NCBI GenBank assembly: GCA_027021705.1
Contig: JALUTT010000037.1
Coordinates: forward strand, 1 to 59,280
DNA: 59,280 nt
Direction: 5' to 3'
Source of the DNA: Anaerolineae bacterium
GTDB taxonomy: Bacteria; Chloroflexota; Anaerolineae; S140-20
Position numbers and translations under genes: made by a program. Shown here piece by piece: positions 14,530 to 33,085 of the stretch. Every line of letters begins with the position of its first letter. The stretch's first letter is position 1. Below the pieces are notes generated by a model. That model ran no database searches. It was not told the origin of the DNA and saw only the letters and a program-made list of their open reading frames with translations.

Positions 14530-14780
14530 GATCAACGACCGCCGATCAAGCGGCCTGGCGGCCTGGCGACTCGGCGACTCGGCGACGGACCGAGGGCCGG
14601 ATACGACCGCCGACGGCCGATCAAGCGGCGTAGCGGCTGGCGGCATAGCGGCATAGCGGCCTAGCAGTGGACTGAGGACTGTGGACTGAGGACAGCGGAC
14701 CAAGCGACTACGTGACCACCTGACCACTTGACCAAGCGACCACCCGACCAAACAGCGGACTGAGGACCGAGGACCGCACT
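14530..14780 (+). repeat. Composite short-tandem-repeat block
   Basis: Ordered modules GACCGCC, GCGGCATA/GCGGCCTA, GGACTGA/GGACTGT, GACCAAGC/GACCACCC. Confidence 0.85.
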
Positions 14781-14781
14781 T

Positions 14782-15741
14782 CTACCCCGATGAGGCCCCC
14801 AACAGCCGTTGGAGCCCTTTCTGAAAAGCCTCCAGGCTCTCCGCCTGCGCCGCCTCCACCAGCAGGTCCTGGAGCAGAACAGCGTCCTCGATCTCGGCCA
14901 GCCGCTCGGCGATGGGCTCCAACGCCGGCCCCGTCGGGTCAAACCGCACCCGCAGCAGGTGCAGGATGGCTTCCCGCTGCCCTTCTAGGATCCCTTGTCG
15001 GAGGCCCTGCTGAAGCCCCTGCTGGAGCCCCTGCTGAAGGCCCTGCTGAAGCCCTTCTTGGAGCCCCAGCCGCCGCCCTTCTTGCAGCCCCTCTTCCAGA
15101 ATCTGCTTGTACCAAGGGGATTCCTTCAAAACCGCCATATCCCACCTCACAATCTGCCGTACTTGCTCCGGCTCCATCACGAAGCTGGCAAACAAGGCCA
15201 GCGCCGCCTCGACCTCCTCCCCCACCCCACGCTCCCGCAACCCCTCCACCCCCCGCCGGATCACCCCCTCGTCCGCCCCTCGCATCAGCGGCACAAAGGG
15301 CACCAGCCCCACCACCCCCGCCGCCACCACCCGCTCCGCCTCCAACTCCCACACCCGCACCACCTGGAAGTCCCGATGGGCCGTCAAGCCCATAAACTCC
15401 TGATGGTACCGGTCCGGCAATGCTACCCCCTCCCCCGGCGGCAGCAGGTAGAGCACCAGCGGGTAGGCCGGCAGATCGTACCGATCCTCCGCCAACGCCG
15501 CGTAGGCTTGCATCCGCCGGGGCATCCGCTTGTCCGCCCGCAACTGGACCTCGACCACCAGGACGAAGGAGCCTTCCCGCCCTTGGGCTCGTAGCACCTC
15601 ATCGCTGTGGCGCGTCAGGAACTGGAACTCTCCCGACAGCCGCTCCTCGACCCGGATGGTCTCGTCCCCCAGCAGCCAGCGGGCCCACTCCGTCGGCTCG
15701 CCGGCCAGCACGTACTTGCCCCCAATGTCCGCCCGGCCCAC
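14782..15741 (-). CDS. Rpn family (PD-(D/E)XK recombination-promoting nuclease-like) protein, copy 1
   Basis: SDEV..VVEVQ nuclease core, RRMQAY, ESPWY, EG/QQGL heptad tail, DUF4351-like C-terminus. Confidence 0.85.
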   Translation of the reverse strand: MGRADIGGKYVLAGEPTEWARWLLGDETIRVEERLSGEFQFLTRHSDEVLRAQGREGSFVLVVEVQLRADKRMPRRMQAYAALAEDRYDLPAYPLVLYLLPPGEGVALPDRYHQEFMGLTAHRDFQVVRVWELEAERVVAAGVVGLVPFVPLMRGADEGVIRRGVEGLRERGVGEEVEAALALFASFVMEPEQVRQIVRWDMAVLKESPWYKQILEEGLQEGRRLGLQEGLQQGLQQGLQQGLQQGLRQGILEGQREAILHLLRVRFDPTGPALEPIAERLAEIEDAVLLQDLLVEAAQAESLEAFQKGLQRLLGASSG

Positions 15742-16006: not shown

Positions 16007-17002
16007 CTACCCCGATGAGGCCCCCAACAGCCGTTGGAGCCCTTTCTGAAAAGCCTCCAGGCTCTCCGCCTGCGCCGCCTCCACCAGCAGGTCCTGGAGC
16101 AGGACAGCGTCCTCGATCTCGGCCAGCCGCTCGGCGATGGGCTCCAACGCCGGTCCCGTCGGGTCAAACCGCACCCGCAGCAGGTGCAGGATGTCCTCCC
16201 GCCGGCCCTCCAGCAGCCCCTGCTGAAGGCCCTGCTGGAGCCCCTGCTGAAGCCCCTGCTGGAGGCCCTGCTGAAGCCCCTGCTGGAGCCCCTGCTGAAG
16301 GCCCTGCTGAAGCCCTTCTTGGAGCCCCAGCCGCCGCCCTTCTTGCAGCCCCTCTTCCAGAATCTGCTTGTACCAAGGAGATTCCTTCAGAACCGCCATA
16401 TCCCACCTCACAATCTGCCGCACTTGCTCCGGCTCCATCACGAAGCTGGCAAACAAGGCCAGCGCCGCCTCGACCTCCTCCCCCACCCCCCGCTCCCGCA
16501 ACACCTCCACCCCCCGCCGGATCACCCCCTCGTCCGCCCCCCGCATCAGCGGCACGAAGGGCACCAGCCCCACCACCCCCGCCGCCACCACCCGCTCCGC
16601 CTCCAACTCCCACACCCGCACCACCTGGAAGTCTCGATGGGCCGTCAAGCCCATAAACTCCTGATGGTACCGGTCTGGCAATGCTACCCCCTCCCCCGGC
16701 GGCAGCAGGTAGAGCACCAGCGGGTAGGCCGGCAGATCGTACCGATCCTCGGCCAGCGCCGCGTAGGCTTGCATCCGCCGGGGCATCCGCTTGTCCGCCC
16801 GCAGTTGGACCTCGACCACCAGGACGAAGGGGCCTTCCCGCCCTTGGGCTCGCAGCACCTCATCGCTGTGGCGCGTCAGGAACTGGAACTCTCCCGACAG
16901 CCGCTCCTCGACCCGGATGGTCTCGTCCCCCAGCAGCCAGCGGGCCCACTCCGTCGGCTCGCCGGCCAGCACGTACTTGCCCCCAATGTCCGCCCGGCCC
17001 AC
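16007..17002 (-). CDS. Rpn family protein, copy 2
   Basis: Near-identical to copy 1; 12 aa longer in the QQGL tract. Confidence 0.85.
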   Translation of the reverse strand: MGRADIGGKYVLAGEPTEWARWLLGDETIRVEERLSGEFQFLTRHSDEVLRAQGREGPFVLVVEVQLRADKRMPRRMQAYAALAEDRYDLPAYPLVLYLLPPGEGVALPDRYHQEFMGLTAHRDFQVVRVWELEAERVVAAGVVGLVPFVPLMRGADEGVIRRGVEVLRERGVGEEVEAALALFASFVMEPEQVRQIVRWDMAVLKESPWYKQILEEGLQEGRRLGLQEGLQQGLQQGLQQGLQQGLQQGLQQGLQQGLQQGLLEGRREDILHLLRVRFDPTGPALEPIAERLAEIEDAVLLQDLLVEAAQAESLEAFQKGLQRLLGASSG

Positions 17003-17053: not shown

Positions 17054-17082
17054 ATTGTAGCATCATCCCGCCTCCCGCGCAA
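17054..17082 (-). promoter_or_regulatory. Sigma70 promoter of Rpn copy 2
   Basis: Identical to 15793-15821. Confidence 0.65.
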
Positions 17083-17357
17083 GGAGCAAGGAGCAAGCGG
17101 CAAGGGGCAAGCGGCAGGGGGCAAGCGGCAAGGGCCAAGCGACCAAGCGAGACCGCCGACGGCTGACCGCCGACCGCCGATCAAGCGGCCTAGCGGCCTG
17201 GCGACCTAGCGGCCTAGCAGCGGACCGAGGGCCGGATACGACCGCCGACCACGGACTGAGGACTGTGGACTGCGGACTGCGGACCAAGCGACCACGTGAC
17301 CACCCGACCACTTGACCAAGCGACCACCCGACCACCCGACCAAACTGCGGACTGCGG
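17083..17357 (+). repeat. Composite short-tandem-repeat block
   Basis: GGGCAAG, GACCGCC, GCGGCCTA, GGACTG, GACCACCC modules. Confidence 0.85.
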
Positions 17358-17789: not shown

Positions 17790-19334
17790 CTACGGAACGG
17801 CCGGGCGTCGTCGCCACAACCAGAGGCCGGCCAGGGCGAAGATGACGACGACGACTGCCGCCACCAGCAGAGGGTGCCACCCCAGGCGAACCCCCTTAGG
17901 CGGAGGGACGGTCACCTCGCCCTGGAGCACCGCCGGCGCCGGCAGGGGGGTTGGCGGAGGCATCACCACCTGGATGCGCAGCGGCCCCCGGTTCGCCGGG
18001 TTCGAGGAGCCGAAGGCGGTCAACTTCGCCACCTCCTCCTCGGTGTAGCCCAGCGCTGCGAAGTCCACCCGGTGGTGGGGGCCGTGACAGGCCGTGCAGG
18101 GAAGGGCGTCTTCCCCGCCCACGATGCCGTGGCTGATCTGGAGGTAGATAGTCACCTCCTTCGGCTCCCAGGAGCCGCTGTAGGCCACCCCCGCCTCCCG
18201 CGCCCCCACCCTGATGGCCTTCTCCAAATCGCCTTGGGTGAAGAAGATGCCCAGCTTCAGGGGGAGAGGCTGGCCGCTCATCGCGTCCACCGGGATCACG
18301 GCGGTGTAGGGCTTGAAGGGCTGGATGCGGGCCGATTCGTCGTCCCGGCTGCCCGGCCAGGGCTGCCCCGGCTTGGTCGGCTGCCCGTTGTACCAGCGGT
18401 AGACGGGCGGGATCGCGTTGGGCTCTTCCACCTTGCTCACCGGCCAGTAGAGGTCGTTGACCGGATCGTGGCGGGACGGGGCCGTCCAATCCCGGTAGAC
18501 CAGCCCGCCGGTGCCCACGATGTGGCAGGTGCGGCAGTCCAGCCGGGTGTGGTCGTTGAGCAGCACGTTGGTGTGGGGTGCGTCCCCGTGGCACCCCTCG
18601 CACCGCAGGCGCTCCTCCGGGCGGTCCCGGCTCCACAGGGTGGGGCCGTAGCCTAGGATCCGGTGCTTCTCGGCCCGGTGGCAATCCACACAGACCATGC
18701 CGGCATCGGCGTGCACGTCCCCCTTGCTGCTCTCGCCGTGCTTGTCGGCGATGGGCGCGAAGTCCACCCCCCGCTTCAGGAGCGCTCCCCCGCCCACGTT
18801 GAAGTGGCAGCGCAGGCAGGTCTCTGCCGTCGGACGCTGGGCATTCCGGGCCGCCCCCAGGCTCCGGTCCTGGGGCAGCACCCACCGCCCCGCCTCGTCC
18901 TTCTGGGGGAAGCGGACCCCCAGGTCATAGACGGGGGAGTGGCAGATGAGGCAGTCCACCATCGCCCGCTCCTCCGGCGGCACGGCATCGGGGTCCTTGG
19001 GCAGCGGTCCCCCCCCAGGGTGGCAGCGCCCACAGCCCCCGGGGATGCCCAGCTCGGGGTTCAGGAGGCCCAGCCAGTTGATCCGGGCGATGGAGGCCGG
19101 GATGGGGCTGTAGTGGTCCAGCTTCTCCTCCCAGGTGTAGTGGACGCTGTGGAGGACCTCCTCCGTCGCCCCGGGATGGCAGACCTCACAGGTCTCCGGC
19201 CCCGTGTACTCCTCGATGTACCGGTGGGGCTCCGGCGGGTCGGCATAGGCCACGTTGACCAGGAGCAGCACCAGCACCAGGCCGAGGAGCCCCCCCAACA
19301 CTCCTTGCAACCACCGTCCCTTCGTTCCGCTCAT
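17790..19334 (-). CDS. Octaheme cytochrome c, tetrathionate-reductase (OTR)-like, membrane-anchored
   Basis: 8 CxxCH; DCLICH, CLRCH..GGG..KRG, DVH, ISHG..ALPCTACH pattern; signal peptide and C-terminal TM. Confidence 0.75.
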   Translation of the reverse strand: MSGTKGRWLQGVLGGLLGLVLVLLLVNVAYADPPEPHRYIEEYTGPETCEVCHPGATEEVLHSVHYTWEEKLDHYSPIPASIARINWLGLLNPELGIPGGCGRCHPGGGPLPKDPDAVPPEERAMVDCLICHSPVYDLGVRFPQKDEAGRWVLPQDRSLGAARNAQRPTAETCLRCHFNVGGGALLKRGVDFAPIADKHGESSKGDVHADAGMVCVDCHRAEKHRILGYGPTLWSRDRPEERLRCEGCHGDAPHTNVLLNDHTRLDCRTCHIVGTGGLVYRDWTAPSRHDPVNDLYWPVSKVEEPNAIPPVYRWYNGQPTKPGQPWPGSRDDESARIQPFKPYTAVIPVDAMSGQPLPLKLGIFFTQGDLEKAIRVGAREAGVAYSGSWEPKEVTIYLQISHGIVGGEDALPCTACHGPHHRVDFAALGYTEEEVAKLTAFGSSNPANRGPLRIQVVMPPPTPLPAPAVLQGEVTVPPPKGVRLGWHPLLVAAVVVVIFALAGLWLWRRRPAVP

Positions 19335-20404
19335 CGCTCACCTCCCTTGGCCTCGTGGCAGGTGAGGCATCCATCCAACGGCCACCCCTTGTGGTCCAGC
19401 GGCGCGGGGGCGATGAGGCCGTCCACGCCGTGGCAGAGCTCGCACCGGGCCATCTCCCCCTCGACGCCGTGGGCGGTGATGGGCATCGGCGTGGGGGTGG
19501 GCGGGGTGAGCAGCCGGGGAGGCGGCGTTGGGGTGATGGCGGCGACTCGGGGGAGCGTCTCCAGGACCACCGGCTGGTAGGGCTCCACCTCGGCGGCCCG
19601 CCGGGGCACCGTCGTGATGGCCGTCTCCTCGATGGTCAGGAAGCGCCAGATGCCCACGAGCAGGAGGACGGCGAGGAGGGTGGCGACGGGAACGTAGCGC
19701 CGTTCCCGGGCCCAGCGCCGGTCGGGAGGCGGGGGCCGATGGACCTCGCCCCGCCGCAGGCGCTCTAGCTCCATCGCGTGCTCCTCCTGCATCGCCTCCT
19801 CGTCCAGGTAGCCGGTGAAGATGCTGGTGTTGAAGTGGCGCAGGTGGACGAAGTAGGAGTGCCAGGTCAAGATGGAAAGCACGGCCAGGAGGGCCTCCAT
19901 CCCGTGGGCGGTCTTGGCAGCCGGAACGAACTCCCCCGGCAGGAAGCGGGTGGCGACGATGGGGTTCCACAGGATGAAGCCGGTGAGGGCCATCAGCGCG
20001 GTGCCCCACACCACCGCCCAGTACTCCAGCTTCTCGACGAAGTTGTAGCGCTCGAAGCGGGGCGGATGGGCGACGAGCCCCAGGCTGTACTTCACCGCCT
20101 GGACGAAGTCGGCCACGTCCTTGCGGGCCGGCAGCATGGTGGGCGACTGGTGCAGCACGTAGATGCGGTACCCGACCACGACCAGGTGGTAGATGGAGAC
20201 CAGGACCAGGACAACGGCGGCGGTGTGGTGGATGACGCGGGTCTGCTCGATCCCCCCCAGCGCCCGGAAGATGGCCACCGCCCAGCCGGTGTCCGGGTAC
20301 TTCTGGGGCAGGCCGGTGATGGCCAGAATGGTGAAGGAAAGCATCAGCAGCAAGTGCTGCACCCGATCCGAGAGGGAGAAGCGGAGATAACGGCGTGTGG
20401 TCAT
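19331..20404 (-). CDS. Cytochrome b (FdnI-like) fused to a C-terminal diheme c domain
   Basis: RFS..DRVQH, RVIHH, RYNFVEKLEYW, AHGMEA, WHSY; CELCH and CLTCH. Confidence 0.85.
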   Translation of the reverse strand: MTTRRYLRFSLSDRVQHLLLMLSFTILAITGLPQKYPDTGWAVAIFRALGGIEQTRVIHHTAAVVLVLVSIYHLVVVGYRIYVLHQSPTMLPARKDVADFVQAVKYSLGLVAHPPRFERYNFVEKLEYWAVVWGTALMALTGFILWNPIVATRFLPGEFVPAAKTAHGMEALLAVLSILTWHSYFVHLRHFNTSIFTGYLDEEAMQEEHAMELERLRRGEVHRPPPPDRRWARERRYVPVATLLAVLLLVGIWRFLTIEETAITTVPRRAAEVEPYQPVVLETLPRVAAITPTPPPRLLTPPTPTPMPITAHGVEGEMARCELCHGVDGLIAPAPLDHKGWPLDGCLTCHEAKGGER

Positions 20405-21531
20405 GACCTAGCCCTCCTCAGCCGCTTCCGCAAGCGCTGCTGGACGTCCAGGGCGATGTAGAGCAGGAAGAAACCCAGGACCGTCGGGATCAGGATTCGG
20501 TAGAACCAGGTGACGCCCGTCACGATGGGGTAACTCCCCCAATCGGGGCGGTAGTGCCCTACCCAACTGTTGGCGAAGCTGGCCGAGGCGTCGGGGTGGC
20601 ATTGGCGGCAGGTCTCGACCAGGTTGGACTTCACGCCCACGTAGCCGGCCTCCTCCGGCGTGAGGATGGCGTGGGCCCCGTGGCAGTCGGTGCAGACCGC
20701 CTTGTTGGTGGGCTGGTCTGGGGTCGTCTTCTCGAAGATGAGCACCGTCGTGCCGTGGAAGTCGGCCACGTAGGTGTCGAAGACCGCCGTGGAGATCCCG
20801 TACTGGGCCATCAGCTTCTTGTCGGCGTGGCACTGGCCGCAGAGCTGGGGCGACTTCAAGCGAAAGGCCAGCGTGCGCGGGTCTTCGATGGTGTGGGCCG
20901 GATGGCAGGTGATGCAGTTGGGCACCACCTTGTTCCCCTCGTAGAGGTCCCGACCGTGGATGCTGCGGCGGTACTCCTCGTAGATCCCGCTGTGGCACCG
21001 GTGGCAGACCTCGACGGCCAGGGTGCGGGGAACCTCCGGGTGCTTCTCGCGGGCGATCCAGCGGACGTCGTGGCCGCCGTGGCAGTCCACGCAGGTCGCC
21101 GCCTCCCGGACCCCGGCGGCCATCGCCCGGGCGTGCACGCTGTCCACCCGCTTCTGGGCTTCCTCCTCGTGGCAGTTGGCGCAGGACTGGCTGTAGTAGA
21201 TGACCAGGTCTCGGTAGTCCTGGACCGGCGGGTCGCCGTGGGGATACCCCCACAGGTCGCTGTGGCAGTCCTGACAGTGCACCTCCTGGCTGGCGTGATC
21301 GCCGTGGGCGGAGATGCGCAGCGCCTCGGCGTCCACGGTGACCGGGAGCAGTTCCCCGGAGGGGAGCACCATCGTCAGCCCCTCCTTCTCGTGGCAAGCC
21401 AGGCAGACCTGGTCGTCCATCGGCGGCGGGTCGGCCACCGGCGGCGGCCCCTCGGCGCCGACGGCCCGGACCGACAGCCCCAGCAGCGCCAGGACGATCC
21501 CCACCACGACCCCCCAACGTCGCAGGCTCAT
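20401..21531 (-). CDS. Nonaheme cytochrome c with C-terminal TM
   Basis: 9 CxxCH motifs, signal peptide. Confidence 0.9.
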   Translation of the reverse strand: MSLRRWGVVVGIVLALLGLSVRAVGAEGPPPVADPPPMDDQVCLACHEKEGLTMVLPSGELLPVTVDAEALRISAHGDHASQEVHCQDCHSDLWGYPHGDPPVQDYRDLVIYYSQSCANCHEEEAQKRVDSVHARAMAAGVREAATCVDCHGGHDVRWIAREKHPEVPRTLAVEVCHRCHSGIYEEYRRSIHGRDLYEGNKVVPNCITCHPAHTIEDPRTLAFRLKSPQLCGQCHADKKLMAQYGISTAVFDTYVADFHGTTVLIFEKTTPDQPTNKAVCTDCHGAHAILTPEEAGYVGVKSNLVETCRQCHPDASASFANSWVGHYRPDWGSYPIVTGVTWFYRILIPTVLGFFLLYIALDVQQRLRKRLRRARS

Positions 21532-23060
21532 GGCTGCACCTCCTCTTCCACCGGCTCCGGGACCTCGGTGACGATGACGTCGCGGTTGGCGGCCCGCTCC
21601 TCCGGCGCGACATCCGCCTCCGTCAGGAAGAGCGCCGTCTGGCCGTGGCAGGCGTTGCAGCGCTCGTTCTGGGGCGTGATGCGGCGCGTGTTGTGGGGCG
21701 TCGTGTACTTCCAGGTGGGCAGGTTGTCGTAGCCGGGGAGCAGGTCCTCCCCGTAGTAGCCGAAGAGGTCCGCCGTGGTCGGCACGTGGCGCAGGAGGAC
21801 GTAGTTCCAGGGCCGCTCCGGGCTCTTCACCGGGTTGCGCCCGATCTTGAAGGTCAGGGCCGAGGGGTCCGAGGTGAAGTAGGGAAGCCCCTTGTCGTCC
21901 CGGCCCACGTGGCAGTTGAAGCAGGACTTGTAGGGGCCTGCGGCGTGGCAGACCTGGCAGTCCAGGCCCTCCAGGTGGGTCTCGTCGTGCTGGGTGATCC
22001 CGTCACCCACCCGCACGGTGTCGTGGCAACCGCTCTCGGTGCAGGAAGGACGGGGAGCGCCGGCGTAGCGGGTGCCGTGCCCGCCGTAGTGGTACTCCTC
22101 CAGGGTGTGGCAGCGGGTGCAGGGCATCCCTTCCCGCTCCCAGTGCACGTCGGCGGGGATGCCCTCGTGCTTGCCCTTGTACTCGTCGTTGATGCGAGCG
22201 CTGTGGCAGCCGCCGCAGGTGGTGAAGACGGAAGCCACCCGCTTCACCTTGTGTCCGGCGATGAGCCCTCCTTCCAGGGCGCGGGGCCGGCTGACGTGGC
22301 AATCCCCACAGTCGGCGTGACACCCGATGCAGTGGGTCTGATAGGCCCGGACCGTCGCCGGATCGGTGAAGTCAGCGCCTCGGGCTTCCAGCACGGCCTG
22401 ATAGCCCCACAGCATCCGGTGCAGCCCCTCCCGCGCCTGCCGGACCAGCCCCACGTGGCAGGTGCCGCAGGCCCGCTCCGGCTCCTGGCCCGCCTTGGGC
22501 AGGAGCCCCTGGTGGGCGGCCTCCTTGTCATCGGTGTCGGGGGTCCCGCCGTGGCAGGCGATGCACCCCGGCTCGCTGTGCACATCCTCCAGGAACTCCG
22601 GATCCACCAAGACCTTCTGCCATACCTCCAACGGAGGTAGCCCTCCTGCTCACCCCTCCCCCGAGGTCATCTCCGACTTGGGCTTCTCCGGCTCCTCGGC
22701 CAGCTCCTTCAACCGCTCCTTGTCCGTGTGACAGGTGACGCAGTTCTCAGAGGAGGGAACGGGCGTCGGCGTGGCGTCCGGCGGAGGGGCCTGGGAGGAC
22801 ATCTCCCCTTGGGGGGCCGAGGCCAAGGCCGAGGGCCCTGCCCCCCCCGCCTCGTCGGAGGAGGGCCGGACGCCCAAGCGGCCGTCGGGTTGGGGGGCCG
22901 GGAGGTCCGCCCCGGCAGCCGGGCGGCCCCAAGCTTGGGCAGGCGCAGACCTCGGGCCTCCCGTCCACCAGACCGCCCCGCCGGCCAGCACCAGAACGAT
23001 GACCACCAGGGCGATCCACCCGCCCCAACGCCAACGGGGCATCCGCATTCCTCGCTGCAT
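21528..23060 (-). CDS. Putative selenocysteine-containing multiheme cytochrome c (510 aa, Sec137)
   Basis: ORFs 22650-23060 and 21528-22631 are in frame, separated only by TGA 22652-22650 (SGEG-U-AGGLPPLE); 10 CxxCH + 1 CX4CH; SECIS-like hairpin; AGGAGG RBS before ATG 23060. Confidence 0.75.
22623..22649 (-). promoter_or_regulatory. Bacterial SECIS-like stem-loop
   Basis: UGA, then 10 nt, then UACCUCC-GUU-GGAGGUA with a G-first apical loop. Confidence 0.65.
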
Positions 23061-23164
23061 TGACTGCCTCCTCACCGGCCGGGGGAGGGGAGTCCGGTCG
23101 GCCCCCCTTCCCCCGGCTTTTCCGTGGGGTTCGTGTCCGAACGGGATTCCGGCGTCAAGCTACC

Positions 23165-25204
23165 CTACTGCTGCACAGGGTAGTCGGGCTGGGTTTCGGG
23201 GTTGAAGCGCGGCTTCGCCAGCACGTCGTCGTCCTTCGTCCAGCCCATCATCCCGAAGAGCAGGTTCGTCGCGTCGTAGCCCAGGACGTTCAGGACGGTG
23301 GTGGCGATGCCCCCGGTGTGGCCCGTGTAGCAGTAGACCACGATGGGCTGATCCGGCGGCAGCTTCTTCAGGTTCTCCGGGTCGGCCAGGGCCTTCCAGG
23401 GGATGTTGACGGCCCCGGGGATGTGCCCCTTAGCGTAATCCTCCGGCTTGCGCACCGACAGGATGAAGGGGTCATTGCTCTCGTCGCCGTCGTTCAAGAT
23501 GTCGTAGAGGTCCTGGGCCTTGATGACCGGTGGCTTGTCCGAGGAGAGGTAAGCATCCACGGCGGCCCGGACGATCTCCTCGGGGGTATCCCCGCTCACC
23601 TCCAGATCCGGGAAGGGGTAGGTCTCCGTGGGCTCGTTGGGCTCCGTCTCGAGGGGGTAGTCGGGCTGGGTTTCGGGGTTGAAGCGCGGCTTCGCCAGCA
23701 CATCGTCGTCCTTCGTCCAGCCCATCATCCCGAAGAGCAGGTTCGTCGCATCGTAGCCCATCAGGTTCAGGGCCGTCGCAGCCACCGCCCCGGTATGGCC
23801 CGTGTAGCAGTAATCCACGATGGGCTTGTCCTTGGGCAGCTTCGCCAGATTCTCCGGGTCGGCCAGGGCCTTCCAGGGGATGTTGACGGCCCCGGGGATG
23901 TGCCCCTTGGCGTAATCCTCCGGCTTGCGCACCGACAGGATGAAGGGGTCGTTGCTCTCGTCGCCGTCGTTCAAGATGTCGTAGAGGGCCTGGGCCTTGA
24001 TGACCGGCGGCTTGTCCGAAGTCAGGTAGGCCTCGGCGGCCTGTCGGACGACCTCGAAGGCACTGGCCGCCGCGCCGCTCTCGACGGGGTAGTCGGGCTG
24101 GGTTTCGGGGTTGAAGCGCGGCTTGGCCAGCACGTCGTCGTCCTTCGTCCAGCCCATCATCCCGAAGAGCAGGTTCGTCGCATCGTAGCCCAGGGTGTTC
24201 AGGATGGTAGTAGCGATGCCCCCGGTGTGGCCCGTGTAGCAGTAGACCACGATGGGCCGGTCCGTGGGCAGCTTCTTCAGGTTCTCCGGGTCGGCCAGGG
24301 CCTTCCAGGGGATGTTGACGGCTCCGGGGATGTGCCCCTTGGCGTAGTCCTCCGGCTTGCGCACCGACAGGATGAAGGGGTCGTTGCTCTCGTCGCCGTC
24401 GTTCAAGATGTCGTAGAGGTCCTGGGCCTTGATGACCGGCGGCTTGTCCGAGGACAGGTAGGCGGCCACGGCCGCCCGGACCATCTCGGCCGGCACCTCG
24501 CCGCCCACCCGAGGCTTAGGCAGCTCGTAGGTCTCCGTGGGCTCGTTGGGCTCCGTCTCAAGGGGGTAGTCGGGCTGGGTTTCGGGGTTGAAGCGTGGCT
24601 TGGCCAGCACGTCGTCGTCTTTCGTCCAGCCCATCATCCCGAAGAGCAAGTTCGTCGCATCGTAGCCCAGGAGGTTGAGGGCCGTCGTGGCGATGGCCCC
24701 CGTGTGGCCCGTGTAGCAGTAGACGACGATGGGCCGGTCCGTGGGCAGCTTCGCCAGGTTCTCCGGGTCGGCCAGAGCCTTCCAGGGGATGTTGACGGCC
24801 CCGGGGATGTGCCCCTTGGCGTAGTCCTCCGGCTTGCGCACCGACAGGATGAAGGGGTCGTTGCTCTCGTCGCCGTCGTTCAGGATCTCGTAGAGGTCCT
24901 GGGCCTTGATGACCGGCGGCTTGTCCGAGGAGAGGTAGGTGGCCACCGCCTCCAGGACCGCGCCGAAGGCATCAACCTCCGGCTTGGGGGTGGGGGTGGG
25001 AGGCACCGGCGTCGGCGTGGGCGGGGGTGGCGTCGGCGTCGGCGGAACCGGCGTGGGGGTGGGCATCGGCGTCGCCGTCGGCGGGGGCGACGTGGGCGTG
25101 GGAGGCACCGGCGTCGCCGTCGGCGTCGGGGCTGCCTGACCACACCCGGCGGTGAAGACGAGGATTAGGGCGAGCAGGATCAGGGTCCACGATCTCCGCT
25201 TCAT
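23165..25204 (-). CDS. Lipoprotein with four rhodanese domains
   Basis: Lipobox FTAGC, Pro/Thr linker, 4x [19 protein letters not shown]. Confidence 0.9.
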
Positions 25205-25391
25205 TGGCTTCTCCTCCTCAGTGTGCTCTAGCGTGCTCTGCGTTCTCCGGGTCGGACCTCCGGGGTCGGGAAACGCCTCCCCATCGGGGGGCAACGAGGG
25301 GATGAATGTCCGACGGAAAGGGTGACATTCAACCCTTGCCCTTTGTACCACAGGGGCCTATAATCGTATAGTGATGTTTGTCACATATCTC

Positions 25392-25432
25392 CATTGGGTC
25401 CGGTTATGGAGTTGCCATAAGGGGAAATTATG
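25392..25432. promoter_or_regulatory. LysR-type binding boxes
   Basis: CATAA-N7-TTATG (T-N11-A) at 25416-25432 and a weaker CATTG-N7-TTATG at 25392-25408 in the divergent intergenic region. Confidence 0.6.
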
Positions 25433-25448
25433 AGAGGGGAGGGGAGTG

Positions 25449-26420
25449 ATGCTCAACCTGAATGACCTGGCCGTCTTCCTGGCAGCGGCGGAGACCTGCA
25501 ACTTCAGCGAGGCGGGGCGGCGGCTGCACCTCTCGCAGCCGGCGGTGAGCCAGACCATCCGCCGGTTAGAAGAGCGGTTCGGCACCCGGCTCTTCCGGCG
25601 GGATGGTCACTGCGTGCGCCTGACCGAGGCGGGCCAGGTCCTGGTGCCGATGGCCCGGGAGCTGCTGGTGGCGGCCAAGCGGCTGGAGGAGACGATGGCC
25701 TCGCTGCAAGGGGCGGTGGTGGGGGAGATGACCATCGGCTGCTCCACCTCCTCGGGGCGCTACCTGCTCCCCGGCCTCATCGCCCGCTTCCGCGCCCGCT
25801 ACCCCAACGTCCGCGTCAACGTCCACATCCACGCCCGGCGGGAGGTGCTGGACCGGCTTTTGGACGGGCGGCTCGGCTTCGGCGTGAGCAGCAAGCGGGT
25901 GGAGCATCGAGACCTGGAGTACCAGCACTTCTTCACCGACGAGGTGATCCTGATCGTGCCGGCGGACCACCCCTGGGCCGGCTACCGGCGGGTCTTCCCC
26001 GATGACCTGCTGGACGAGCCGATGATCCTGCGGGAGGAGGAGGCGGGAACGCGGGAGGTGCTGCTGGAGGGGCTGTTGGAGCACGACATCTCGCCGGACA
26101 TGCTCCAGGTGGCGATGGTTCTGGGCAGCGCCGAGGCCATTGGGCGGGCGGTGGCCGAGGGGATCGGCGTCGCCTTCGTCTCGCGGATCGCCGTGGCCCA
26201 GGGGTTGGCCTTGGGGCAGGTGGTGGAGGTTGCCGTCGAGGGGCTGGACCTACGCCGGGAGATCTACCTGGTGCGCAATCGGAGCCGGCCCTTCACCCGG
26301 GCCCAGGCGGCCTTCTGGGAGTTCGTGAAGGCCCTCCCCGAGGAGCTGGACGCGGGAACCTTCCCCTCGCTGGCCCCCGTCTGCTACACCCCCGGCGAAG
26401 GGCTTTCTGTGCCTATTTAG
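25449..26420 (+). CDS. LysR family regulator (CysL-like)
   Basis: NFSEAGRRLHLSQPAVSQ HTH; IGCST, REEEAGTRE, GSAEAI. Confidence 0.92.
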   Translation: MLNLNDLAVFLAAAETCNFSEAGRRLHLSQPAVSQTIRRLEERFGTRLFRRDGHCVRLTEAGQVLVPMARELLVAAKRLEETMASLQGAVVGEMTIGCSTSSGRYLLPGLIARFRARYPNVRVNVHIHARREVLDRLLDGRLGFGVSSKRVEHRDLEYQHFFTDEVILIVPADHPWAGYRRVFPDDLLDEPMILREEEAGTREVLLEGLLEHDISPDMLQVAMVLGSAEAIGRAVAEGIGVAFVSRIAVAQGLALGQVVEVAVEGLDLRREIYLVRNRSRPFTRAQAAFWEFVKALPEELDAGTFPSLAPVCYTPGEGLSVPI

Positions 26421-27053
26421 TCCACAGTCCACAGTCCACAGTCCTCAGTCCGCACTTGGTCGCTTGGTCATCTAGTCGCTTGGTCGAGTAGTCCTCAGTC
26501 CTCAGTCCTCAGTCCTCGGTCCATAGTCCATCGCTATGCCGCTAGGCCGCTAGCCGCTAGGCCGCTAGCCGCTACGCCGCTATGCCGCTAACCACTACGC
26601 CGCTACGCCGCTCGTCCCCTGCCCCTCAGTGCCTCGGCCCTCGGTGCCTCCCCCCGCCGGGCCGCTATGCCGCCAGCCGCTATGCCGCCCTGGAACGGAT
26701 AGCTGTCAGCGGATTTGAGAACGGATTGAGCGGATGGGAGACGTAGTCCTCGGTCCTCAGTCCTCGGTCCTCAGTCCGCCGCTAAGCCGCTATGCCGCTC
26801 GATCGGCGGTCCGCGGTCGGACGCAGTCCACAGTCCACAGTCCTCAGTCCTCGGTCCATAGTCCGTCGCTATGCCGCTCGATCGGCGGTCCGCGGTCGGT
26901 CGTCGGCGGTCGGACGCAGTCCACAGTCCTCAGTCCTCAGTCCTCAGTCCATAGTCCATCGCTATGCCGCTAGGCCGCTAGCCGCTAGGCCGCTAGGCCG
27001 CTACGCCCCTCGCCCCTCGCCCCTCAGTGCCTCGGCCCTCGGTGCCTCCCCCT
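26419..27053 (-). repeat. Two to three tandem composite repeat blocks
   Basis: CAGTCCA/CAGTCCT, TTGGTCGC, GCTATGCC, GCCCCTC modules ending in AGTGCCTCGGCCCTCGGTGCCTCCCCC. Confidence 0.85.
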
Positions 27054-27266
27054 ACTCCGCCATTCCAACGCCTTCCGTTGGAGTTCGAGCGCAGTGTACT
27101 GATCGCGGTAATCCCGCAGGACGCCGGCCCAATCTTGGCGGAGCTTCCTGCCCGCTTTCGGGCGGTGCTTCATCAGAAGAAATTCCACAAAATCCCTGAC
27201 CACCCTCTGCGCATAGGGCGGTAGCTCTTTGACGAGTTCCGGTAGGGGCTTAACGGCCATACCCAT
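27024..27266 (-). CDS. DUF2281-type antitoxin-like small protein
   Basis: LVKELPP..VRDFVEFLL..LRQDWAG.L..YTALELQ.KALEWR; GAGGAG RBS; C-terminus runs into the repeat. Confidence 0.75.
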   Translation of the reverse strand: MGMAVKPLPELVKELPPYAQRVVRDFVEFLLMKHRPKAGRKLRQDWAGVLRDYRDQYTALELQRKALEWRSRGRHRGPRH

Positions 27267-27339
27267 TGCCCGCTCCTCATCCGAAAAACTCAAACGAACA
27301 CCGTTCTGTGCCGAATCCAGACGGACAATCCGCGGTAGA

Positions 27340-27369
27340 AGTATACCACTTCCACCCGCCGGTGCCCAA
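27340..27369 (-). promoter_or_regulatory. Promoter of the DUF2281 gene
   Basis: TTGGGC-18 bp-TATACT abutting the repeat block. Confidence 0.5.
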
Positions 27370-27371
27370 CG

Positions 27372-27632
27372 CAGTCCACAGTTCACAGTCCGCAGTCCTC
27401 AGTCCGTACTTGGTCGCTTGGTCGGGTGGTCACTTGGTCGGGTGGTCGAGTAGTCCTTGGTCCTCAGTCCTCAGTCCTCGGTCCATAGTCCATCGCTATG
27501 CCGCTATGCCGCCAGCCGCTATGCCGCTACGCCGCTACGCCGCTATGCCGCTAACCACTACGCCGCTAGCCACTACGCCCCTCGCCCCTCGCCCCTCAGT
27601 GCCTCGGCCCTCGGTGCCTCCCCCCGCCGGGC
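27372..27632 (-). repeat. Composite repeat block
   Basis: Same module order as 26419-26662. Confidence 0.85.
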
Positions 27633-30600
27633 GGCTCCCGGAGCCAGGGGGGAAGGGGTTGGCCGGTCGCCTCCTGCCAGAGGGGGTCGAACCGCTCCGG
27701 CCCCAACTCCTGCCGCCAGCGGATCAGCACTTCGGCCATCGCCCGTTGGGTTTGGGGCTCGATGCCCAAACGCTGGAGTAGGGCCAGACCGGAGACCAGA
27801 GCGCGGAGCGCATCGGCGTGACGCTCCATCGCCCACAGGGTTTGGCCCATCATCCCTAGGGTGATCGCCATACCCTGTTGGTCCCCCAGGCGCTCCTTGA
27901 TCGCCAGAGACTCCCGGTAGAGGCCCATCGCCCCCTCCAGGTCGCCCCGTTGGGCGAGGATGCCGGCCATCTCGTGGAGGGTGGCGCTCCGGCCCCGTTG
28001 GTCCCCCAGGCGCTCAGCGACCTCCAGCGCCTCCCGGTAGAGGCCCATCGCCCCCTCCAGGTCGCCCCGCACCCGCAGGATGTAGGCCATCTCGTGGAGG
28101 GTGGCGCTCCGGCCCTGTTGGTCCCCCAGGCGCTCGTCAATCTCCAGCGACTCCCGGTAGAAGCGCATCGCCCCCTCCAGGTCGCCCCGATCGGCGAGGA
28201 TGCCGGCCATCGCGTGGAGGGTGGCGCTCCGGCCCCGTTGGTCCCCCAGGCGCTCCAGGGTTTCCAGCGCCTCCCGGTAGAGGCCCATCGCCCCCTCCAG
28301 GTCGCCCCGATCGGCGAGGATGCCGGCCATCTCGTGGAGGGTGGCGCTCCGGCCCCGTTGGTCCCCCAGGCGCTCGACGATTTCCAGCGCCTCCCGGTAG
28401 AGGCCCATCGCCCCCTCCAGGTCGCCCCGTTGGGCGAGGATGCCGGCCATCACGTGGAGGGTGGCGCTCCGGCCCCGTTGGTCCCCCAGGCTCCCGTCAA
28501 TCTCCAGCGCCTCCCGGTAGAGGCCCATCGCCCCCTCCAGGTCGCCGTAGTGGCGCAGCAGCCAGCCCAGGTGGAAGCGAAAGGCCGAGGCCCGCCCCTC
28601 GTCCTCCACCCATCCCACCGCCCGCTCCAGGTCCGGCAGCATCCGCTGCACCACCTGGGCCAGCACCGGCTTCTGCCAGATGGTGCCGTAGGCGTGGGCG
28701 GCCAGGGCGGCGTAGGCCTCGCCAAAGGCGGGGCGCAGGGGGGCCAGCACCGCCTCCCCCGCCTTCGCCTCGGCGTAGGCCCCCAGCGTGGGGTGCAGCC
28801 GGTAGAGCAGCGCCCACCCCGTCGGGTCCACCACCTTCACCCGCTCCACCATCCCCCGGCGCCAGAGCCGGTGCAGCCACTCCCCCACCGCCTCCTCCGC
28901 CTCCCCCAGGACCGCCGCCACCACCTCCGGGGGGAAGGGGGCGGTGAAGAGGGCCAGGCGGGGGAAGCGCTCCTGCAGCTCCCGGGGCAGCGCCTCGTAG
29001 GAGTAGTCGAAGCAGGCCCAGAGGCTCTCGTGGCGGGCCTCCTCGCTCCAGGGGTCCTCCACCGTGGGCAGCCGGGCGGCCAACCCCTTCCGGAAGTCGG
29101 CCAGCGACCGGGGAAAGTCCTCGAAGGCGGCGGCCAGGAGGCGCAGGGCCAGGGGGTGGCCCCCCACCTGCCGGCTCAGCGCCTCCATCTCCGCCCGGTC
29201 CGCCCGCTCCCGGCCCGTCCCGGCGTGCTGGGCGAAGAGGCGGGCCCCCGCCGAGGGGGTGAGGCCGGTCAGGGGCACGACTTCCTCCCTCGGCAGGCCC
29301 ACCACCGCCCGCCCCGTCAGGAGCAGGGTGGTCTTGCCCCCCACGGCCCGGCGCAGCAGGCCGCCGATGGCCCGGGCCCTGGCCCTTTCCTCCTGCTCCT
29401 CGGCGCCCCCCTCCTCCCCCCTCTCCCCCTCCACCGCCCTCACCAGCGTCTCCGCGTTGTCCACCACCAGGAGGAGGCGGCGGGCCCGCAGCGCCTCCTC
29501 CACCCGGTGGCGCCACCGGCGCACCGGCTCCTCCGGGTCGCGGGGGAGCCCCAGGAAGTCGCCCAGGCGGGTCAGGAGCCGCTCCGGGGAGGGGAGCCGC
29601 TCCAGGGAGAGGGTCAGGACGCCGTCGGGGAAGGCCCAGGCGAAGCGGCGGGCCGCCTCCCGCGCCAGGGCGGTCTTGCCCATCCCCCCGCCGCCGTGGA
29701 TGGTGATCGCCGGCGGGCGGGCCTCGCCCGTGAGGAGGTCGCCCAGATCCACCAGCTCCCGCTGCCGTCCGACGAACTCCCCCTCCACGGGGGGGAGGTC
29801 GCTCAGGTCCACCCGCTCCGGCGGGGGCGGGGGCGTCCGCACCCGGGCCTGCCCCTCGGCCAGGGGGAACCGGGCCCGGGGGCGAGAGAGGCCGGTGTAG
29901 AGGACGGGGATGGCCATCAGCAGGGGCTCCTCCTCCAGGGCCATCCGGGCCCGGCGGACCGCCTCCTCGACGGGGTGGCTCCGGGCCAGGTAGGTGTAGA
30001 AGCGGGCGGCGAAGCGGCGGGCGGTGGCGTCGGGAACGGTGAACTGCATCCCCAGGGCGTAGGGGATGCCCTGAGCGACGAGGGCACGGGCCAGGCCGGC
30101 CAGGTCGGTGCGGGCGGGGGCGGCGGTGAGGCAGGCGTTGAGGAAGACCAGGCGGGCCTTGCCCCGCACCCGGCGGACGAAGTGGTCGGCGGGAACGGGG
30201 TGGGAAGCGCCGTTGGGCTGCTCGAAGAGCAGGAAGGCCCCCTCCTCGGTCACGGTGCCGTGGCCGGCGAAGTGGACGATGCCGGTGGCGACGTCGGCCA
30301 GGGCCTCATCCAGGGCGTCCAGGGTGGGGGGGAGGACCTGGACCAGGTCGTAGGGGGCGTCCAGGCCGGCGATGGCCTCCCGCAGCGCCTCCCACTCCTC
30401 CAGGACGGCCAGGGGCCGTTCCTCCGGCTCCCCCTGGAGGGAGAGGAGGGGGGAGGCGGGGAGGAAGAGGATGGGCAGGCGCTCCAGGCGGGCCTCCGAC
30501 CAGGCGGCCCGGCGTCGGTCAGGGGGGAGGCCCCGCAGGAGGTAGAAGTCCAGGGCCAGGAAGCGGGCACCGTCGTGGAGGAGCTCCCAGGGGATGGCGT

Positions 30601-30868
30601 CGAGGACGGGGTGGTCCAGGACGAGGAGGAGGGTGGCCCGGGGGTCGGGGGCGGCGGGGAGGGCGGTCAGCGCCTCGGCGGCGGGGCCGTCGGGGGGGAA
30701 GAGGGCGGCGTAGAGGGCCCGGCCGTAGGCGGCGGGGTCGTCCGGGATCACCCGCCCTCCCTCGGCGGTCGGGGCGATCGCGCCCAGGTCGAAGCGGTGG
30801 GCCGGGGTGCCGTTCACGGCTACCCGGACCTGGTTGACGCCGGTGGGGGTCAGGGTCAGTTCCAGCAT
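27596..30868 (-). CDS. CHAT protease + STAND/NB-ARC-like NTPase + TPR protein
   Basis: IPWELL, HFAGHG, LVFLNAC, GMQF; FVGRQREL, GGGGMGKT, LLVVDNAE, GHPLAL; six 40-aa TPR repeats. Confidence 0.88.
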   Translation of the reverse strand: MLELTLTPTGVNQVRVAVNGTPAHRFDLGAIAPTAEGGRVIPDDPAAYGRALYAALFPPDGPAAEALTALPAAPDPRATLLLVLDHPVLDAIPWELLHDGARFLALDFYLLRGLPPDRRRAAWSEARLERLPILFLPASPLLSLQGEPEERPLAVLEEWEALREAIAGLDAPYDLVQVLPPTLDALDEALADVATGIVHFAGHGTVTEEGAFLLFEQPNGASHPVPADHFVRRVRGKARLVFLNACLTAAPARTDLAGLARALVAQGIPYALGMQFTVPDATARRFAARFYTYLARSHPVEEAVRRARMALEEEPLLMAIPVLYTGLSRPRARFPLAEGQARVRTPPPPPERVDLSDLPPVEGEFVGRQRELVDLGDLLTGEARPPAITIHGGGGMGKTALAREAARRFAWAFPDGVLTLSLERLPSPERLLTRLGDFLGLPRDPEEPVRRWRHRVEEALRARRLLLVVDNAETLVRAVEGERGEEGGAEEQEERARARAIGGLLRRAVGGKTTLLLTGRAVVGLPREEVVPLTGLTPSAGARLFAQHAGTGRERADRAEMEALSRQVGGHPLALRLLAAAFEDFPRSLADFRKGLAARLPTVEDPWSEEARHESLWACFDYSYEALPRELQERFPRLALFTAPFPPEVVAAVLGEAEEAVGEWLHRLWRRGMVERVKVVDPTGWALLYRLHPTLGAYAEAKAGEAVLAPLRPAFGEAYAALAAHAYGTIWQKPVLAQVVQRMLPDLERAVGWVEDEGRASAFRFHLGWLLRHYGDLEGAMGLYREALEIDGSLGDQRGRSATLHVMAGILAQRGDLEGAMGLYREALEIVERLGDQRGRSATLHEMAGILADRGDLEGAMGLYREALETLERLGDQRGRSATLHAMAGILADRGDLEGAMRFYRESLEIDERLGDQQGRSATLHEMAYILRVRGDLEGAMGLYREALEVAERLGDQRGRSATLHEMAGILAQRGDLEGAMGLYRESLAIKERLGDQQGMAITLGMMGQTLWAMERHADALRALVSGLALLQRLGIEPQTQRAMAEVLIRWRQELGPERFDPLWQEATGQPLPPWLREPPGGGRHRGPRH
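27876..28546 (-). repeat. 120-bp intragenic tandem repeats encoding TPR units
   Basis: GTCCCCCAGG recurs at 27881, 28001, 28121, 28241, 28361, 28481. Confidence 0.9.
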
Positions 30869-31732: not shown

Positions 31733-33085
31733 AGTACAGCTTTGCGTAAATGTGTTCCTAGTCTTGACTAGCCGGCCAGATGGGGTATACTTGGGCCAGG
31801 AGGTGAACGATGCCAGGACCTCAGCCCAAGTACCCCATCCAATTGACGCCGGAGGAGGAGAAGGAACTCCGCCAATTGGTCAACTCTCCCAAAGCGCCCC
31901 AGGGCCTGGTGATGAGAGCCCGCATCATCCTGGCGGCGCACGATCATCCCGACCGGAGCAACCAGCAGATTGCCCGAGAAGCGGGCTGCACCGACCGGAC
32001 GGTCCGGAAGTGGCGGCGGCGATGGGTGGAACGGCGCAGCATCGAAGACCTGCCTAGGCCGGGGGCTCCCCGGCGTTTTCCCCCCTGAGGTGCGGGCCCA
32101 GGCCACGGCGCCGGCTTGTAGTATGCCCCAGGAGGAGGGGGTGCCCCTGGGGCGGTGGAGCTACGCCGAGATCGCCCGTCGGCTCGTTGCCTTGGGGTTG
32201 GTCGTTTCCATTGCCGTCAGCACCATCGCCCGCCGGCCGGCCGCCGAGAAGCTGAAGCCGTGGCGCTACCACACCTGGCAGCACATCTTGGACCCCCAGG
32301 CCTTCTTGGAGCGGGCTCGCCCCATCCTGAACCTCTACCAAAAGGCTCAGGCCCTGTGGGAAGAAGGCGTATGGGTGGTCTGTGTGGACGAGAAGACTTC
32401 CATTCAAGCTCGCCAACGGACACCTCCTCCCGAGCCGGCCATTCCGGGGCAACCGGTGCATATCCCCTCCCGTTACCGGCGTCGTGGGGCCTGGCAATTG
32501 TTCGCCGGATTGAGCGTGGTGGATGGGATGGTCTTTGGGCAATGTCGGGAGCGAAAGCGCTTCGTGGACTTCCAAGCCTTCCTGTTGGAGACGCTCTTCC
32601 CGGAGGCCTTGAAGCGGGGGGTTCGCACCCTGGTGCTCATCTTGGACAACAGCACCACCCACGCCCCCAAGCAGTGGGAAGGATGGCTGCAGGAACAACT
32701 CGAGACGGGGCGGTGGCCCTTCACCGTTGAGGTGCGTTGGTTGCCCACCAACGCCTCTTGGCTGAATCAGATCGAAATCCGGTTCAGCATCCTGCAGCGG
32801 AAGGTGTTGCAGCCCAACCATTTCACCGGCTTGGAGGACCTGGAGAAGACCCTTCAGGGTTTCATTGCCCACTACAATGAAACGGCCAAGCCGATTCGAT
32901 GGTCCTACACCGCCGAAAAGCTTGAACAGAAACCGGCGATGAACTGACTCGGTGGTGAATGCTCCCATCGTGCCTTCCGTGGACGCTTGAGGCAGGTCGG
33001 AAGCGTGGCCGGTTTGCTCTGAGCCTGCCTCTCACCGGTCCGCTTACCCATCCTTACTAGGAACGAACTTGTGCAAAGCTGTACT
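31733..33085 (+). mobile_element. IS630 family insertion sequence
   Basis: TIRs AGTACAGCTTTGCGTAAATGTGTTCCTAGT / ACTAGGAACGAACTTGTGCAAAGCTGTACT; TA duplicated at 31731-31732 and 33086-33087. Confidence 0.9.
31810..32947 (+). CDS. IS630 transposase (two ORFs, -1 frameshift)
   Basis: HTH ORF 31810-32088; slippery TTTTCCCCCC at 32076-32085; DDE motifs VDEK, LDNSTTH, SWLNQIE. Confidence 0.85.

Follow-up and report, generated by a model that had tools for sequence, protein, structure and literature searches.

What chemistry would a run of cytochrome genes with some thirty hemes serve when a rhodanese, and no molybdopterin catalyst, is encoded beside it? The question is raised by positions 17,790 to 26,420 of a 59,280-nucleotide contig from an Anaerolineae bacterium of the Chloroflexota (GenBank assembly GCA_027021705.1, contig JALUTT010000037.1; the whole contig is called the window here), which is contig C37 of a source genome, G000, of 5.19 Mb and 94.9% completeness. 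We found that the conserved core of this operon is an evolutionarily coupled pair, a rhodanese gene and a gene for an 11-heme cytochrome c in which an in-frame TGA almost certainly encodes selenocysteine (Sec). We propose, with a probability of roughly 0.55, that the operon as a whole specifies an oxidoreductase of sulfane sulfur, tethered to the membrane and facing outward in a cell with a single membrane, and run as a rhodanese-fed reductase of polysulfide or elemental sulfur (S0). Below, L-numbers denote related loci, G-numbers genomes and C-numbers contigs. The parts of the core in the window are as follows.

25204-23165, minus strand: rhodanese lipoprotein, 679 residues, with four PF00581 domains, a TAGC lipobox, a Pro/Thr tether and four single-Cys CYTGHT loops
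23060-21528, minus strand: putative Sec-containing 11-heme cytochrome c (the Sec-cytochrome), 510 residues from an ATG start at 23060, with 10 CxxCH motifs and 1 CX4CH motif
22652-22650, minus strand: in-frame TGA inside the Sec-cytochrome gene, read as U137
22623..22639, minus strand: hairpin of 7 bp resembling a selenocysteine insertion sequence (SECIS), beginning 11 nt 3' of the UGA

The reading of the TGA rests on its behavior across related loci. A first scan of genome contigs gave 58 loci. Followed upstream, the frame of 49 of them first meets a stop at one common GxG-U-(A/G) site, as a TGA, with an open frame containing one CxxCH ahead of it; of the remainder, the TGA of L026 lies in an assembly with a frameshift, a sense codon or a deletion takes its place in six, and two do not cover the site. 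The 49 TGA-bearing genes end in TAA (22), TGA (14) or TAG (12), with one running off its contig. Combining the first loci with the flanks of 80 class regions, and removing duplicates and rows not covering the site, gave 131 distinct loci (flanks were not taken from genomes represented among the first loci, from five that had partial matches, or from G173); here the site is U in 120, W in 4, C in 2, and R, S, L, G and V in 1 each, and is never TAA or TAG. Cys is the commonest site residue among unsplit protein representatives (15 of 51, after two spurious matches in a giant repeat protein were taken from 53 rows), and the two Cys-form loci are L041 and L043. In an alignment of 34 chosen loci, 88.7% of the cells of the hairpin are paired and 14 changes are compensatory (both-side); 0 of 500 shuffles reached either value, a test inflated by the relatedness of the sequences, and all six slid controls scored lower. 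Synonymous sites near the UGA are frozen, the Pro at +5 being CCT in 34/34 compared with 16% elsewhere in the gene, and the hairpin occupies the same position as the hairpins after the UGA of the genome's fdhA. Folding the window's UGA region alone gave no gain over shuffles (z 0.01 to 1.0, best -0.9), so the SECIS signal comes entirely from cross-species comparison.

The source genome encodes selA, selB, selD (selD itself with a TGA) and tRNA-Sec. Elsewhere, selA was found in 39 of the 44 TGA-bearing genomes tested (50 of 56 loci tested); it is absent from both Cys-form Rhodobacter genomes and is present too in three W/R genomes and in the genome of L057. A pseudogene or sequencing error was ruled out, the TGA being kept in 120 loci and bridged by metagenome contigs of three runs. 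Because of the TGA at 120 of 131 loci, the Cys homologs, the covarying hairpin and the presence of selA, selB, selD and tRNA-Sec, the codon is almost certainly read as selenocysteine, which an earlier prediction made from the window's letters alone (the original prediction) had called putative. Sec has also been lost, through a single TGA-to-TGG change, in L099 (G082:C4) compared with L100 (G040:C70), and also in L034, L035 and L103. L099 retains the hairpin sequence and has no rhodanese gene, and its loss of Sec appears to be recent; the hairpin is gone from two of three older Sec-less loci folded. Sec-less copies retain all hemes and may have turned into plain wires.

The rhodanese lipoprotein, which we propose to be the carrier of sulfane sulfur, keeps company with the Sec site. 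Among the 86 loci with 2 kb on both sides, a rhodanese gene lies within 3.5 kb of 77 of the 80 Sec or Cys genes but of none of the 6 others; with flanks of 0.7 kb (103 loci) the figures are 91/95 and 0/8. On a FastTree phylogeny of 117 rows (14 were left out for short flanks) the Sec site changes five times, and of five independent pairs an average of 4.7 differ in the same direction and none in the opposite one. Between the genus-mates L100 (TGA, rhodanese) and L099 (TGG, no rhodanese), the order of iron-sulfur (FeS), NrfD and 13-heme genes is otherwise common to both. At L121, L123, L124 and L133 the rhodanese domains continue in frame into heme 1 and the Sec codon, and the three complete fusion loci have four, six and four such domains. 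A complex predicted for the natural Cys pair of L041, from Rhodobacter, scored 0.61, compared with 0.00 for the best of three controls, and passed a threshold that 116 of 157 solved complexes attain, as do 2 of 215 mismatched pairs; its contacts agree at 100%, the partner has a predicted local distance difference test score (pLDDT) of 91, and the interface is made up of the helix that follows heme 1 and the stretch immediately past the Cys. This model supports binding, not sulfur transfer. Because the rhodanese gene is kept with Sec or Cys, lost without Sec and fused in four loci, and because the complex model passes, the two genes form the conserved core, and both the functional pairing foreseen by the original prediction and the complex structure prediction it proposed as a check came out in its favor. 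Four rhodanese domains occur also in relatives, for example L003, L005, L009 and L011, so the repeat number is no assembly artifact; none of the public metagenome contigs compared with the window crosses these repeats. At L047:7676-8419, just upstream of the Sec-cytochrome gene, stands a regulator-like protein with a C-terminal rhodanese domain, which we take to be of the ArsR type and which could be a persulfide sensor.

In a profile search of 401 genomes of the same class (this and the other class tallies, for selA and NF040886, include one unpublished genome, G324, as a count) the Sec-cytochrome family was present in 90, with an internal TGA in 90 of 100 matches. It occurs outside the class as well, in KSB1, Calditrichota, Marinimicrobia-type lineages and, in Cys form, Rhodobacter, and its distribution is patchy, both genomes from the same taxonomic family as the source lacking it. 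The nearest relatives of the window loci are Anaerolineae, in agreement with the Chloroflexota origin first suggested. From the N terminus, the protein is laid out as a membrane anchor (the anchors of all operon proteins were read by eye from sequence), a tether, heme 1, a GEG-U-AG arm and the main heme domain. An AlphaFold2 model of residues 101-510 has a pLDDT of 87, and its residues 58-407 match Shewanella OTR (PDB 1SP3) with Z 9.7 and a root-mean-square deviation of 4.7 over 275 aligned residues, the next hit having Z 4.7; OTR was also matched by Foldseek (E 5.7e-4) and by profile (E 7e-10). Because of these fold, Foldseek and profile matches, the protein is predicted to be an OTR-like core to which an N-terminal heme and the Sec arm have been added. 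Its eleven heme motifs compare with nine non-motif His that are universal and ten conserved in the Sec forms; since the hemes outnumber the conserved non-motif His, at least one heme should be without a distal His, and we infer that it is the one matching the catalytic heme of OTR. All 22 Cys of the protein lie inside heme motifs, with no free Cys. An Arg three residues past heme 6 is invariant among the 120 Sec forms (100%), and its frequency is 75% among 16 Cys forms and 46% among 37 others; these percentages refer to related, not independent, sequences. Neither the read-through protein nor any of eight natural Cys forms comes near the cut-off of an NCBIfam family, the only ESM Atlas matches were cytochrome clusters with generic names, and a metagenome scan for extra Cys-form neighborhoods gave four short loci. 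We propose the Sec-cytochrome as the catalytic subunit.

Downstream of the core, the window operon continues with three further cytochrome genes.

21531-20401, minus strand: nonaheme cytochrome c, 9 CxxCH, with a C-terminal membrane helix
20404-19331, minus strand: FdnI/HydC-type cytochrome b with a C-terminal diheme c domain (2 CxxCH); PF01292 E 1.5e-13, TIGR01583 below cut-off
19334-17790, minus strand: octaheme cytochrome on an OTR scaffold, 8 CxxCH, with a C-terminal membrane helix

The genes, their order and their strand are those of the original prediction, as are the 4-bp overlaps, which take the form ATGA at all three junctions joining the four cytochrome genes; its estimate of about 30 heme motifs corresponds to 29 CxxCH and 1 CX4CH, 30 in all. 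Pfam/NCBIfam-type family scans of the cluster proteins found neither a molybdopterin subunit nor a porin in the cluster, in line with what had been claimed, and no intrinsic terminator was called within it. The Sec-cytochrome, nonaheme, cytochrome b and OTR-like octaheme occur together at 22 of the 131 loci, the window included, and also at L026 and L032; the octaheme of L033, L035, L037 and L040 was rejected as another type, leaving the count at 22, and the 22 full-operon loci lie in one well-supported clade. Because the same four cytochrome types recur in 22/131 distinct loci, the gene set stands together more often than by chance. Other clades have FeS, NrfD and multiheme genes, HmcB/C-like pairs, or a fused nonaheme-cytochrome b (630-650 residues in the KSB1/Calditrichota loci), and 29 of the 65 loci flanked by 4 kb on each side have no cytochrome b or NrfD gene nearby. 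The membrane module is interchangeable, and the window operon is one clade's version. Of the co-conserved unit that had been predicted, the core is kept across loci, but the full set is not fixed, its membrane part being swapped for NrfD/FeS or Hmc-type modules.

The nonaheme and cytochrome b together read as a split, CbcL-like module on the quinol side, and two paralogous pairs of this kind are found elsewhere in the source genome. The octaheme is a full-length OTR homolog over the whole heme domain, with its hemes in OTR order (E 5.5e-31); against TIGR04315 it scores 168.5 bits, and the cut-off of 375 is not reached. It has no free Cys, and it has Ser and Gly aligned to the catalytic Lys and Cys positions of OTR, whose Lys56 and Cys64 we take to be, respectively, the proximal ligand and the distal-pocket residue of the catalytic heme. 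Nine true octaheme homologs, when aligned, have the same Ser/Gly state and about nine conserved non-motif His. Because it is without the OTR catalytic Cys and Lys, the octaheme is probably an electron-transfer wire and not a catalyst, so that the OTR scaffold seen by the original prediction stands, but the tetrathionate reduction that it suggested is weakly supported.

How, then, does the operon relate to systems already described? MccSep/ExtKL of Geobacter sulfurreducens (GSU2937-2936) is a proven pentaheme Sec polysulfide reductase (PMC13510729), from a cluster that includes a rhodanese, a porin and a cytochrome b (PMC5877670), and so gives our reading a precedent after the fact. Like it, the Sec-cytochrome is an exported multiheme cytochrome c with one Sec from an in-frame UGA that splits the annotation, has Sec and Cys forms, neighbors a rhodanese and a cytochrome b, and has a conserved Arg proposed near the site. 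Unlike MccSep, a soluble periplasmic tetramer with five hemes, a His/Cys-ligated heme and Sec on a C-terminal Ig-like domain, the window protein is membrane-tethered, has eleven hemes and no free Cys, and would place its Sec on an N-terminal arm (residue 137 of 510). MccSep also reduces selenite, preferring polysulfide about sevenfold, and it was inactive with tetrathionate and thiosulfate (PMC13510729). The NF040886 model (MccSep/ExtKL; cut-off 250) gave no hit at E up to 1 for the Sec-cytochrome, its cut-off was reached in 0 of 401 class genomes, and MccSep was not among the sequence or fold matches of solved structures, with which a shared heme core remains compatible. Membership in MccSep was rejected on the missing NF040886 match, the heme number, the Sec position and the lack of a free Cys. 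The sole ExtKL-like match in the 401 class genomes (G313:C110:3681-4739; 146 bits, below cut-off) contains one TGA, and G313 also has a window-type operon.

The extHIJKLMNOPQS cluster of Geobacteraceae, which affects selenite/tellurite reduction (PMC5877670), likewise combines a rhodanese, a Sec-multiheme, further multihemes and a cytochrome b; the window cluster is without its porin and without its Rieske protein. The comparison with Ext families that the original prediction had called for went against kinship, all Ext models scoring far below cut-off on the window (ExtH 31.5 bits, cut-off 200; ExtM 25 bits, cut-off 800), and membership in the Ext cluster was rejected, the parts not being orthologous by these scores. 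In the source genome an 11-heme cytochrome beside a Mo enzyme (L184; G000:C22:29714-32326) has a sub-cut-off ExtM match of 232 of 800 bits. KSB1-type clusters (L045, L046 and L048-L052) add a sigma-54 activator, a small TPR-like protein, a 400-residue protein and a 12-heme cytochrome. The 400-residue protein has no Pfam or NCBIfam hit and is porin-like only at a guess; so read, it and the 12-heme cytochrome bring the KSB1 relatives closer to the Ext cluster, of which they are possibly a diderm counterpart.

OTR of Shewanella (1SP3, TIGR04315) shares its fold with the Sec-cytochrome core, which has three more hemes and no TIGR04315 hit; OTR proper was rejected for the octaheme as well, on its score below the TIGR04315 cut-off and its lack of the catalytic Cys/Sec and Lys. 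A catalogued OTR subfamily (WP_331457571.1) has Sec at NNF-U, the catalytic Cys position (PMC12013277), and was rejected too, the NNF-U site being in neither window protein and the Sec lying at another place. CbcL of Geobacter, which serves low-potential acceptors (PMC9129911), shares with the window a nine-heme c domain and a membrane di-heme cytochrome b, a likeness of architecture alone; the window has two genes and an added diheme domain. A 2026 inventory of 119 prokaryotic selenoprotein families has, in its Table 1, three heme-motif entries, ExtKL, GSU2204 and Sec-OTR, and none is the window family (PMC13188914). Our literature search, the scope of which excluded subscription journals, bioRxiv supplements and the BSepDB database, found no paper describing the family. 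As judged from these searches, which returned neither an NCBIfam family nor a listed selenoprotein, the Sec-cytochrome family is uncatalogued, and by its architecture the window module would work like MccSep/Ext without being homologous to them.

In Wolinella succinogenes, Sud, an exported rhodanese-type polysulfide-sulfur transferase, serves the membrane-linked polysulfide reductase PsrABC, whose catalyst is a molybdopterin enzyme with FeS and NrfD-type subunits; the proposed catalyst of the window is, in contrast, a Sec-heme protein. Anaerolineae, which abound in sediments, vents and digesters, are generally taken for fermenters, a picture that had been carried over to this lineage and that the host contradicts with its aa3-like oxidase, FdnG, NiFe hydrogenase and 29 multiheme open reading frames (ORFs) holding 180 CxxCH motifs. 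The source genome also has cytochrome c maturation genes, a weak TtrA-like protein, eight PF00384 matches, among them a PhsA/PsrA-like Mo subunit (620.8, cut-off 694) that is accompanied by FeS and NrfD proteins, and a type III sulfide:quinone reductase (SQR) above cut-off in which no in-frame TGA was seen. By its gene content the host is thus versatile in its respiration, with at least two possible routes for sulfur, and the Mo-independence claimed for the system holds for the module itself but not for the genome. In this 95%-complete genome dsrA was not found, and neither were Omp85 and LpxC, as expected of the probable monoderm that had been predicted. One run of genes in it (L180; G000:C2:29500-41000) comprises the PhsA/PsrA-like Mo enzyme, FeS, NrfD, a Rieske protein, a multiheme cytochrome and the type III SQR. 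The genome has several Sec candidates, among them the NiFe hydrogenase large subunit at G000:C27:25262-26815, with two in-frame TGA codons three codons apart (RI-U-GV-U), and a second multiheme cytochrome (L189; G000:C31:6445-9300, minus strand), distantly OTR-like and fused to cytochrome b, whose in-frame TGA (GKY-U-PP) is followed by a window-like hairpin.

In the mechanism that we favor, polysulfide sulfur would be taken up by the rhodanese domains in the form of Cys-persulfides, and these domains would dock next to heme 1 and the Sec arm. The selenolate would attack the persulfide to give an Se-S intermediate, the flexible arm would carry it to the heme without a distal His in the OTR-like core, near the conserved Arg, and two electrons delivered there would release HS-. 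Electrons would run from the quinol pool through cytochrome b and the CbcL-like nonaheme, perhaps by way of the octaheme as a further wire or store, to the Sec-cytochrome. Substrate, direction, swinging arm and open heme are all inferred parts of this scheme, and several observations weigh against it. Transfer from menaquinol to polysulfide is uphill at standard potentials; MqnA was not found in the source genome and menB is below cut-off; and the separate PhsA/PsrA-like operon could do the polysulfide job. The His/Cys heme and Sec site of MccSep cannot be copied exactly in a protein with no free Cys, and both the distance from Sec to a heme and the choice of the open heme are taken from alignments. 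As for the coupling, 3 of 80 Sec loci have no adjoining rhodanese, the sign test gives p 0.0625 (five pairs cannot reach 0.05), the modeled pair comes from Rhodobacter and not from the source genome, and in that model the arm Cys and the rhodanese catalytic Cys both lie outside the listed contacts. Since 355 of the 401 class genomes have selA, its co-occurrence carries little information inside the class and was set aside there as support for Sec.

The same parts might work in the opposite direction, sulfide or sulfane sulfur being oxidized outside the membrane, with the rhodanese removing sulfur and electrons passing through the hemes and cytochrome b to the quinone pool. That direction is downhill at standard potentials, FdnI/HydC-type cytochromes b reduce quinone in dehydrogenases, the source genome has an aa3-type oxidase and the type III SQR, and two Rhodobacter genomes pair a Cys form with a rhodanese; but the characterized analogues MccSep, OTR and CbcL act in the reducing direction, the carriers are mostly Sec users of lineages considered anaerobic, and SQR already provides sulfide oxidation, and we regard it as unlikely. 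Somewhat less likely still is a selenium (or tellurium) substrate, by selenite reduction, Se0 mobilization or selenium scavenging with perselenide on the rhodanese. The divergent LysR regulator comes nearest to a selenium-metabolism model (242.1 of 250 bits), the source genome has its several Sec candidates, MccSep accepts selenite (PMC13510729) and selenite/tellurite reduction is influenced by the Ext cluster (PMC5877670); against this stand the roughly sevenfold preference of MccSep for polysulfide, the Cys forms in genomes without selA, and the large outlay that thirty hemes in 22% of the class would be for a trace element.

Interconversion of tetrathionate and thiosulfate, as in OTR or TsdA, with the rhodanese handling thiosulfate sulfur, seems improbable to us even though two operon proteins have the OTR scaffold and rhodaneses use thiosulfate: the octaheme has Gly at the catalytic position and no free Cys, and the Sec of the Sec-cytochrome is on a different, N-terminal arm. 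An OTR subfamily does have Sec at the catalytic Cys position (PMC12013277), but MccSep is described as inactive with both compounds (PMC13510729). Removal of reactive sulfur, or reduction of surface persulfides or disulfides at quinol cost, would need no respiration, and would suit both the two-gene core that commonly stands alone (the 29 of 65 loci above) and the patchy distribution that skips both same-family genomes; with three kinds of heme-rich membrane module recurring beside the core, which fits a high electron flux, we consider it very unlikely. Least probable is a TGA that is a real stop, leaving a small monoheme anchor and a separate decaheme as a plain wire to acceptors outside the cell, for example Fe(III). 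Seven codons past the TGA there is indeed a TTG accompanied by a run rich in purines, where databases start the gene, and unsplit forms with Trp, Leu, Arg and others indicate that the protein can persist without Sec; yet the stop-like codon is always TGA, the amino acids encoded between it and the TTG are conserved, the downstream product would lack a signal for export, and there are Cys homologs and a covarying hairpin that is lost in two of the three older Sec-less loci folded.

If the rhodanese-fed reductase is real, electrons reach sulfur beyond the membrane along a path that annotation overlooks: the family gene is cut in two by gene callers and labeled hypothetical, which would leave a large blind spot in sulfur-cycle gene surveys and, at 90 of 401 class genomes, offer a new marker of S0 metabolism. 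Sec-heme S-S chemistry would then have arisen on at least three scaffolds or sites, those of MccSep, Sec-OTR and the window family. A stronger form of the proposal, which we advance only tentatively, holds that selenium-heme sulfur reductases evolved a second time, independently, as the present class: Sec on a swinging arm would ligate an OTR-type heme at its sixth position, or react there, and would take sulfur directly from the docked rhodanese. On this view about a fifth of Anaerolineae, together with KSB1, Calditrichota and Marinimicrobia-type lineages, would have here a main route of S0 respiration that has so far gone unseen. The chemistry is open to direct test, since nature offers Sec, Cys and Sec-less forms of the protein, fusions with the rhodanese, and a Cys pair from Rhodobacter.

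The remaining features of the locus concern its regulation and surroundings.

25446-26420, plus strand: divergent LysR regulator, nearest model LysR_Sec_metab (NF040786)
25336..25456, both strands: two divergent sigma-70-like consensus matches, one per strand; 2 found compared with 0.4 expected, as consensus matches only
23079..23118, minus strand: G+C-rich stem-loop without a U-run, between the rhodanese and Sec-cytochrome genes

The divergent LysR gene was part of the original prediction and stands as described. Its product scores 242.1 bits against NF040786, the selenium-metabolism-associated LysR model, which is the best of 55 families although the cut-off of 250 is not reached, and it is present in 11 of the 22 full-operon loci, including all that have Sec and more than 4 kb of upstream DNA. 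The stem-loop at 23079..23118 is possibly an mRNA stabilizer or a partial terminator; its 100-nt stretch has z -2.2, and 5 of 200 shuffles are equally stable. Hydrothermal-vent metagenomes from two studies contain long, nearly identical stretches of window DNA, and one of the runs is probably where it came from; this setting of an uncultured hot-vent bacterium counts in favor of the sulfur reductase reading. There was no RNA dataset among the matches listed for the window.

Arrays of 7- to 8-nt units (AGTCCTC, CGCTAGGC, GACCACGC) fill intergenic DNA on both sides of the cluster, at 14624-14751, 17079-17343 and 26419-27625 of the window, and are found elsewhere in the genome, for example before selD. 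Also on the octaheme side are two tandem, near-identical ORFs with GLQQ repeats (14782-15741 and 16007-17002), flanked by simple repeats; the first has no Pfam match at 1e-8, and both presumably resemble Rpn/DUF4351-type proteins. Beyond the LysR gene lie a CHAT-ATPase-TPR protein (27596-30868) and two overlapping ORFs (31810-32947), which we take to be an IS630-type transposase.

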